A stretch of DNA of 64,000 nucleotides, from assembly GCF_048403405.1 (NCBI RefSeq), contig NZ_CP183129.1; one strand, 5' to 3'. This document shows, piece by piece, positions 26,787 to 28,704 of this stretch (position 1 is its first letter; each line of letters begins with the position of its first letter). A program made the translations under genes and the position numbers. Under the pieces are notes generated by a model, which made no database searches, had not been told where the DNA came from, and saw only the letters and a program-made list of their open reading frames with translations. This stretch comes from Escherichia coli. GTDB lineage: Bacteria > Pseudomonadota > Gammaproteobacteria > Enterobacterales > Enterobacteriaceae.

Positions 26787-26847
26787 TTTATTTTCTCCAT
26801 GTACAAATACATTAAAAAATAAAAACAAAGCGACTATAAGTCTCGGC

Positions 26848-26868
26848 CGTGACAGCTTTATGACAGCT
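26848..26868 (-). promoter_or_regulatory. Pho box of the phoA promoter
   Basis: Minus strand reads CTGTCATAAAGCTGTCAC about 60-80 bp upstream of the phoA start. Confidence 0.8.
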
Positions 26869-26886
26869 GTTGAAAAGATTAACTTT

Positions 26887-27147
26887 TTACTGACGAGGAT
26901 GCTTCAATAACTTCTTTACATAATTGCGCAGCAGCTCCGTAGCGTCGTCAGGAATGCTGGCATCGGGCTTTACCTCGTACAGCGCCCCCTCTACCTGATC
27001 AATCAACCTTTGTTGGTCATTTTGCGCCATATTGCGAAGCATTGCAGTGACGATAATCTCCAAAGCTTCTACCTGCGCGCACAGTTCTTTCGACTCTTCT
27101 TCTTTTTGGGCAAGCTTAAATAACAACTCAGCAATGAGATTTTTCAT
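26887..27147 (-). CDS. iraP: Anti-adaptor protein IraP (stabilises RpoS under phosphate starvation)
   Basis: 86-aa [40 protein letters not shown]... matches IraP (YaiB). Confidence 0.93.
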
Positions 27148-27609
27148 GTCTGTATTTCCTTATCCAAAGTATGGAGAAGTTAACATTATGTTTCACAACT
27201 TCATAGTGTCTGGAAGTATTATTTTTATGACAAAGGAAATACTTTGCGCAAATATTTTTTGTTTGATTACCAGCGAAACGTTTCTCTTATTTTAATAATT
27301 ACCCACACAAAATATAGGCTTTTAATTATCAACCTTTATTATAAATAAAAGTTATGAAATATATTCTCTTCGTAAACTTATAATTAAGAGAAAAAAACTC
27401 ACTGCATGGCCATACAAGCCAGGAATAAATTAGCTTCCCGTTCATCATTTTTGTGATCTTGCGCACATCATTGAGATAACGCGCTTTCTTCACCAGTACG
27501 TTGCACGCTTTGTCAGCAGAAGATTGCAACATTCTGTCAGAAGGCCGCGAATCCCCCGTTTTGTCGTGGTAATGTATGCACTTTGTGTTAGACGGGATAG
27601 GTTTTTAAG

Positions 27610-28704
27610 ATGGAAAAACTGCGGGTAGGAATCGTTTTTGGTGGTAAATCAGCGGAACATGAAGTGTCTCTGCAATCGGCAAAAAACATTGTCGATGCCA
27701 TTGATAAAAGTCGCTTCGACGTTGTGCTGCTGGGCATTGATAAACAAGGGCAATGGCACGTCAGCGATGCCAGCAATTATCTGCTAAATGCAGACGATCC
27801 TGCCCATATTGCGTTGCGCCCTTCGGCGACCAGCCTTGCGCAGGTGCCTGGTAAACATGAACATCAGCTTATCGACGCGCAAAACGGTCAGCCGTTGCCG
27901 ACGGTGGATGTCATTTTCCCGATTGTCCACGGTACGCTGGGCGAAGATGGTTCCTTGCAGGGAATGCTGCGGGTCGCCAATTTACCGTTTGTAGGTTCTG
28001 ATGTTCTGGCTTCAGCGGCCTGTATGGATAAAGATGTCACCAAACGTCTGCTGCGCGATGCCGGGCTGAACATTGCGCCATTTATTACCCTGACGCGCGC
28101 TAATCGTCACAACATCAGTTTTGCCGAAGTGGAGTCTAAACTGGGGTTACCGCTGTTTGTAAAACCGGCTAATCAGGGCTCTTCTGTTGGTGTCAGCAAA
28201 GTAACCAGTGAAGAACAGTACGCAATTGCCGTCGATCTGGCGTTCGAGTTCGACCATAAAGTGATCGTTGAGCAAGGGATCAAAGGTCGTGAGATCGAAT
28301 GCGCAGTTCTGGGCAACGACAATCCGCAAGCCAGCACCTGTGGCGAGATCGTACTCACCAGCGATTTTTATGCCTACGACACCAAGTACATTGACGAAGA
28401 TGGCGCGAAAGTGGTAGTTCCGGCAGCCATTGCGCCAGAAATCAACGATAAGATCCGGGCGATTGCCGTTCAGGCTTATCAGACGTTGGGATGCGCAGGC
28501 ATGGCGCGTGTAGACGTGTTTTTAACCCCAGAGAACGAAGTGGTGATCAACGAGATCAACACACTGCCTGGTTTCACCAACATCAGTATGTATCCGAAGC
28601 TGTGGCAAGCCAGCGGTCTGGGTTACACCGACCTGATCACCCGTTTGATTGAGCTGGCGCTGGAGCGTCACGCTGCGGATAACGCATTGAAAACCACAAT
28701 GTAA
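27610..28704 (+). CDS. ddlA: D-alanine--D-alanine ligase A
   Basis: 364-aa [53 protein letters not shown]... matches DdlA. Confidence 0.96.

Follow-up and report, generated by a model that had tools for sequence, protein, structure and literature searches.

IraP sets the stability of RpoS, and inputs to the iraP promoter therefore shape the general stress response. The iraP promoters of Escherichia coli and Salmonella respond to ppGpp and DksA (ppGpp control is stated in PMC10957080), and that of Salmonella responds to PhoP as well: the Salmonella spacer between an MFS transporter gene (mfs) and iraP carries PhoP boxes and a PhoP-dependent iraP start with a 218-nt leader. Also in Salmonella, rbsR mutants have less RpoS protein with unchanged rpoS transcription; iraP mutants show the same combination, and the two mutants have a common phenotype for growth on succinate. 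The authors of the rbsR study left the mechanism open.

Here we analyse the DNA upstream of iraP in a 64,000-nucleotide stretch of an E. coli genome (the window). We conclude that the 462-bp iraP–ddlA spacer is very probably a composite transcription-control region that arose by gene loss, and not a gene for a protein or an RNA. As regulatory DNA it is ordinary and has a clear evolutionary explanation, and it yields two modest leads, an orphaned CRP site and an RbsR-type operator.

The iraP–ddlA spacer

The window sequence is that of E. coli, with 100% identity over the query to strain 7/2, and the iraP–ddlA region is found in 5,422 of 5,426 complete E. coli genomes. The initial annotation described a long divergent spacer with very AT-rich DNA inside it, and measurement agreed: iraP and ddlA are divergent, with phoA on the minus strand like iraP, and 462 bp lie between them (27148–27609). 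GC content is 0.35 in the spacer compared with 0.51 for the whole window. The 100-bp stretch with the least GC anywhere in the 64 kb lies inside the spacer, starting at 27287 (GC 0.18), and the AT-richness of 27290–27420 is equalled by only 0.6% of 131-bp windows. The genes and frames concerned are as follows.

26887–27147, minus strand: iraP, encoding the anti-adaptor IraP (Pfam PF10796, 2.8e-33; NCBIfam equivalog NF007598, 134.6 bits; RefSeq agrees)
27290–27420: very AT-rich block (GC 0.25, minimum 0.18), whose iraP-side part, about 27291–27364, is a remnant of the ancestral MFS–iraP intergenic region
27329–27532, minus strand: ORF67, a 67-aa frame with an ATG start, a PGAP 'hypothetical protein' (WP_000942026.1 and relatives); a chance ORF
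27610–28704, plus strand: ddlA (ORF list and annotation)

Gene loss as the probable origin of the spacer

Scanning species-representative genomes for IraP gave 80 loci. In Salmonella, Enterobacter, Leclercia, Kosakonia and most others, the start of ddlA is some 2.4 kb away from iraP, and in most loci two iraP-strand genes stand between them, one for a PF06904 extensin-like protein (ext) and one for an MdtG-like MFS transporter; a K. pneumoniae orthologue table likewise has two genes between. Both are missing from all Escherichia and from three Citrobacter, and the iraP–ddlA gap is 450–464 bp in all Escherichia.

Cross-genus BLAST of the E. coli spacer covered only 27528–27660 and 27100 to about 27286, with homology from Escherichia to Enterobacter, Kosakonia and others ending sharply at 27528. 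A permissive search revealed a 27-nt match, 27430–27456, that is found again in over 40 loci, where it lies between the extensin-like and MFS genes; the extended element, TGTGA-N6-TCACAAATATGATGAcTGGGAAGATAAAA, stands about 100–150 bp before the MFS start codon (100–130 bp in most) in 38 other loci. Local alignment assigned each Salmonella spacer to its own part of the E. coli sequence: ddlA–ext to 27528–27609 (score 108), ext–mfs to about 27434–27502 (score 47) and mfs–iraP to 27152–27364 (score 120). The locus thus has what marks a gene-loss scar, namely flanking synteny, intervening genes in outgroups and residual non-coding homology. This origin, together with the CRP site and the RbsR-type operator described below, makes up the main features that the initial annotation missed.

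We propose that the Escherichia lineage lost the bodies of the extensin-like and MdtG-like genes and kept pieces of three flanking intergenic regions, which now abut. The piece next to ddlA (27528–27609) would comprise the ddlA promoter and leader; the middle piece (27430–27470) would be the upstream element of the lost transporter gene, with a high-affinity CRP site; and the remainder (27148 to about 27364) would be the ancestral iraP upstream region, with an AT-rich distal part, the RbsR-type operator and two iraP promoters. Homology in the middle piece is short (27–40 nt), and a blastx comparison of the central 241 bp with the extensin-like and MFS proteins of Salmonella and Enterobacter turned up no coding remnant (E > 0.3). 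As neither lost coding sequence has left a detectable trace, the scar model leans on synteny and parsimony.

We measured constraint along the spacer as the fraction of positions invariant among seven Escherichia species, with the 4-fold sites of ddlA and iraP (46% invariant) as the neutral reference. The conserved blocks, delimited after inspection of the alignment, have these invariant fractions.

27528–27609: block A, 0.87; ancestral ddlA–extensin-like intergenic DNA by BLAST homology, and the presumed ddlA promoter and 5' UTR
27430–27470: block B, 0.78 (P = 3e-5); by homology to the element before the MFS gene, the upstream element that the lost MdtG-like gene left orphaned
27345–27391: block C, 0.64 (P = 0.012)
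27270–27290: block D, 0.86
27148–27251: block E, 0.80

The four stretches between blocks are 0.26–0.49 invariant, and the DNA between the conserved islands evolves at the synonymous-site rate. Within E. coli, the block-B 46-mer occurs in 5,412 of 5,426 genomes, compared with 716 for the adjacent 46-mer when a 28-nt exact word is required for both.

Some loci in the collection call for separate mention. Citrobacter sp. NCU1, Awk 4 and R56 (L009, L010 and L012) are missing both intervening genes and keep the CRP-site element; L011 is missing only the MFS gene and also keeps the element. The record CACSKA010000001.1 (L072), titled 'Chryseobacterium sp. 18061', carries a typical Enterobacteriaceae ddlA–ext–mfs–iraP locus and is probably mislabelled or contaminated. 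'Escherichia sp. ESNIH1' (PQKR01000011.1, L066) groups with Pseudescherichia vulneris, not with Escherichia.

iraP promoters and the AT-rich block

The spacer had been read initially as promoter and UP-element DNA. The promoter part of that reading stands, with mapped iraP starts inside the spacer. The UP-element part does not extend to the block 27290–27420, which lies at about −76 to −206 from the start at 27214 and is too distant from either mapped start to be an UP element. Cappable-seq places iraP-direction starts in the spacer at 400543, 400561 (weak) and 400587, which correspond to 27214, 27196 and 27170 (for U00096.2, window position = 427757 − coordinate). Two promoters can be described from these starts.

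27170–27185, minus strand: proximal iraP promoter P1; TSS 27170 (400587 in U00096.2; Cappable-seq score 168; the same start in Kim 2012), 23-nt leader, extended −10 TGtTAACTT at 27185–27177 as read from the sequence
27214–27251, minus strand: upstream iraP promoter P2; TSS 27214 (400543; Cappable-seq score 298, the highest in the spacer), 67-nt leader, presumed −10 ATAAAAAT at about 27228–27221 and −35-like TTGCGC at 27251–27246

The P1 block is 80–100% invariant among Escherichia species and the P2 motif ATAAAAATA is conserved across genera. Both mapped E. coli starts and their −10 regions show conservation across genera. Just upstream of the presumed P2 −35 is an A/T-rich tract, AAACAAAAAATATT (27252–27265), which fits the UP-element idea loosely and is poorly conserved in sequence.

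The iraP-side part of the AT-rich block falls within the alignment to the equally AT-rich Salmonella mfs–iraP spacer, in the region that holds the PhoP boxes and the 218-nt leader. The Salmonella PhoP-dependent start aligns near 27365, where Cappable-seq saw no E. coli start. E. coli also differs in missing the Salmonella PhoP box CCGTTACGATATGGTTTAA, which lies directly after the MFS gene that Escherichia lost.

A scan for PhoB motifs gave a site with 5 mismatches. The literature contains a NagC site at 27294–27316 (aataattacccacacaaaatata), a FITBAR prediction only; its sequence varies among Escherichia species and it is probably not functional. In E. coli O121 (NZ_CP119441.1, L083, 2389–3486, about window 27000–27368), the AT-rich block carries IS1 copies and iraP has lost its N-terminus, and many 'partial' ORF67 proteins lie at contig ends of draft assemblies, which suggests that insertions or assembly breaks are common at this block.

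An orphaned CRP site in block B

Block B contains the only CRP site in the spacer that a motif scan found with two or fewer mismatches.

27452–27467: CRP site TGTGATCTTGCGCACA, one mismatch to TGTGA-N6-TCACA

A 2026 Footprint-seq preprint lists TGTGATCTTGCGCACA among its novel CRP sites (centre 401077, window 27456), with an in vitro Kd of about 1.2 nM for CRP and the assignment 'ddlA / iraP'. The CRP site is also about 30 bp from an FNR ChIP-seq summit at 400,328 (window 27429) reported by Myers 2013, who classed iraP as directly FNR-repressed, with the comment 'TSS not in peak region'. Our motif scan found no good FNR motif at the summit.

With its TGTGA-N6-GCACA core and nanomolar in vitro affinity, block B resembles the sites of CRP-dependent promoters. 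Unlike them, it has no evident partner promoter at −41.5, −61.5 or −71.5: a sigma-70 scan found no −10 reaching 4/6 at class I or class II distance on either strand, and the weak TAATTT at 27432–27427 would place CRP near −40. As an orphan transcription-factor site, it is still conserved although the ancestral downstream gene is gone. The orphaned CRP/FNR site may now modulate iraP, the reading we favour, or possibly ddlA. If so, it offers a clean example of a regulatory element that has outlived its own gene and has possibly been re-used.

Alternative readings of the spacer

The initial annotation had thought the spacer worth a look for an unannotated small RNA; such an RNA has no support in sequence searches or published maps. 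Rfam at a permissive E-value returned only eukaryotic-family noise for the spacer (best E = 1), a terminator scan found no terminator-like site at 26800–27900, promoter-like counts in a promoter scan were not above those of shuffles, and sliding RNAalifold over nine Escherichia sequences gave z about 0 across the AT-rich part on both strands. Cappable-seq of glucose-grown cells has no start on the iraP-direction strand between 398889 and 400543, that is, upstream of 27214, and term-seq has no 3' end from 399790 to 401850, between the ddlA terminator and phoA. A transcript might nevertheless arise if a CRP-dependent promoter in block B still fires towards iraP only when cAMP–CRP is active, yielding a small or non-coding RNA or an AT-rich iraP leader of about 270 nt. 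The affinity of the CRP site would suit such a promoter, as would the conservation of about 22 nt downstream of the site, both in Escherichia and in genera with the element before the MFS gene, and the weak −10-like TAATTT; CRP is inactive in the glucose-grown cells of the TSS map, and the hypothetical transcript 27425–27215 folds better in E. coli than its own shuffles do (z = −2.9). That fold is, however, not conserved (z = +0.6 for the Escherichia consensus), the 38 nt immediately downstream (27392–27429) are the least conserved part of the spacer, and the lack of a suitably spaced 4/6 −10, of mapped ends, of an intrinsic terminator and of an Rfam match all weigh on the same side. We regard a distal promoter of this kind as quite improbable. 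It is unlikely, too, that ddlA and not iraP is the target of the CRP site and block B, which would then serve the ddlA promoter from far upstream, in an activating or architectural role. The site is 150 bp from the ddlA ATG compared with 312 bp from iraP, and the Footprint-seq table names both genes, but in the ancestral arrangement the element faced the MFS gene, with the extensin-like gene and more than 800 bp separating it from ddlA; in the published FNR data the peak goes with iraP expression, and the plus strand is without a −10 at class I or II spacing.

As for proteins, ORF67 would have to encode a genuine small protein of recent origin, restricted to E. coli, and this we consider extremely unlikely, in line with the early view of the frame as an improbable gene. 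PGAP names it 'hypothetical protein' in almost every RefSeq E. coli, and the frame is open in the window strain, K-12 and several others. Its best anti-Shine–Dalgarno duplex is only −1.7 kcal/mol compared with −6.2 for iraP and −5.6 for ddlA, which agrees with the earlier remark that it has no obvious ribosome-binding site; it matches no Pfam or NCBIfam model, and the curated MG1655 annotation enters no gene between ddlA and iraP. A search of 5.8 billion proteins found relatives confined to E. coli, Shigella and one cryptic Escherichia. Conservation analysis, which had been suggested as a check, went against the frame: it contains stops or a frameshift in all six other Escherichia species (L003–L008), PGAP itself flags it as frameshifted or internally stopped in five of eight E. 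coli sampled across the identity range, and its start codon is TTG in K-12 as against ATG in the window strain. Intact alleles carry 12 non-synonymous and 2 synonymous polymorphisms, the random expectation (predicted synonymous fraction 0.20), and KITKMMNGKLIYS, the one part of the frame that is conserved, falls on the CRP-site block. ORF67 also spans the inferred deletion junctions. It is an accidental frame across those junctions, picked by ab initio gene finding in AT-rich DNA, and it fits the known class of spurious intergenic ORFs completely, with no ribosome-binding site, homologues in the species only, neutral substitutions and frequent disruption. Horizontal or mobile origin of the AT-rich block, as an H-NS-silenced islet or an insertion-sequence remnant, is very improbable. 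The block does contain the lowest-GC stretch of the 64 kb, and IS1 landed in it in the O121 strain; against this, every Escherichia species has it at this location, part of it is homologous to the Salmonella mfs–iraP spacer, it has no terminal repeats but merely short chance repeats, and it has no match in a phage collection, with matches in a plasmid collection only to E. coli chromosome-sized records.

WP_000942026.1, WP_001300163.1 and WP_001300669.1 represent ORF67. Essentially all of the 5,400 complete E. coli genomes have the frame annotated, either as a hypothetical protein or as a pseudogene with a frameshift or internal stop. Calling of ORF67 by PGAP looks like a systematic annotation artefact, and the frame, now spread across thousands of RefSeq genomes, should be flagged as spurious.

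Two further RNA-related observations concern the ddlA side. A weak G·U-rich hairpin, the one signal of the RNAalifold scan, is predicted at 27558–27517 on the minus (iraP) strand only, within and just beyond the ddlA-proximal block (consensus minimum free energy −21 compared with −11 for shuffles, z = −3.4), in a region too conserved for covariation; it could be a leader relic of the lost extensin-like gene. Adams 2021 reports a bicyclomycin-sensitive (Rho-dependent) antisense 3' region inside ddlA at K-12 400341 (+), about window 28192 on the minus strand, reading towards the spacer.

A candidate RbsR-type operator upstream of P2

Block D holds a sequence similar to the perfect 20-bp palindrome upstream of K-12 rbsD (TCAGCGAAACGTTTCGCTGA), which we take to be the RbsR operator.

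27270–27289: candidate RbsR-type (LacI-family) operator, plus-strand sequence CCAGCGAAACGTTTCTCTTA, centre 27279.5

The sequence shares 13 of the 14 core positions of the rbsD palindrome, and 17 of all 20, and its centre lies at −65.5 from the TSS at 27214 and at −109.5 from that at 27170. A match with two or fewer mismatches is expected 0.39 times per 64 kb by chance, so that a lone occurrence is not significant. The element recurs, with AAACGTTTCG invariant 115–133 bp before the iraP ATG in 60 of the 80 loci and in many genera, and within Escherichia the operator is 86% invariant compared with the neutral 46%. Like the rbsD operator, it is a palindrome around a central CG, with an identical right half-site, GTTTCGCTG. 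It differs in its degenerate left half, which reads GAGAAAC or GAAAAAC instead of GCGAAAC, and in its position: the rbsD operator lies over the start or leader, whereas the site upstream of iraP is at −65.5 of a promoter, for which activation rather than repression would be expected.

In the motif scan, Cra and PurR gave poorer matches to 27270–27289 than RbsR did. The reported secondary targets of RbsR are purH, add and udk, whose upstream regions match the rbsD palindrome far worse. A literature search found no paper linking RbsR to iraP and no report of the operator at 27270–27289, and iraP is reportedly not among the named targets of RbsR genomic SELEX. In summary form, that SELEX analysis is given as just 5 peaks, which counts against the proposal.

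Judged by its sequence and placement, the operator is a candidate for connecting RbsR with RpoS stability. RbsR would bind at −65.5 of P2 and stimulate iraP, and ribose availability would then reach RpoS stability through IraP. Binding of RbsR to 27270–27289 would wire ribose availability directly to RpoS degradation and, if true, an RbsR–iraP link would give the missing mechanism for the post-transcriptional drop in RpoS of the Salmonella rbsR mutant. More tentatively, it is possible that the spacer as a whole acts as a sugar-sensing input to RpoS proteolysis, with a genuine RbsR site stimulating P2 and the CRP/FNR site retained to report carbon and oxygen status.

A further RbsR-like site, CATGTAAAACGTTTCGAGGT, weaker than the perfect rbsD operator and about 80 bp upstream of it, is present in the K-12 kup–rbsD spacer (L092, 741–760) and is similar to AAAAACGTTTCG, the variant that precedes iraP in Enterobacter. 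Loci of the Klebsiella oxytoca group (L075, L081 and L082) have a rearranged neighbourhood upstream of iraP, with ddlA and the extensin-like and MFS genes all absent from the nearest 3 kb, and still retain the RbsR-type operator 115–116 bp before the iraP ATG.
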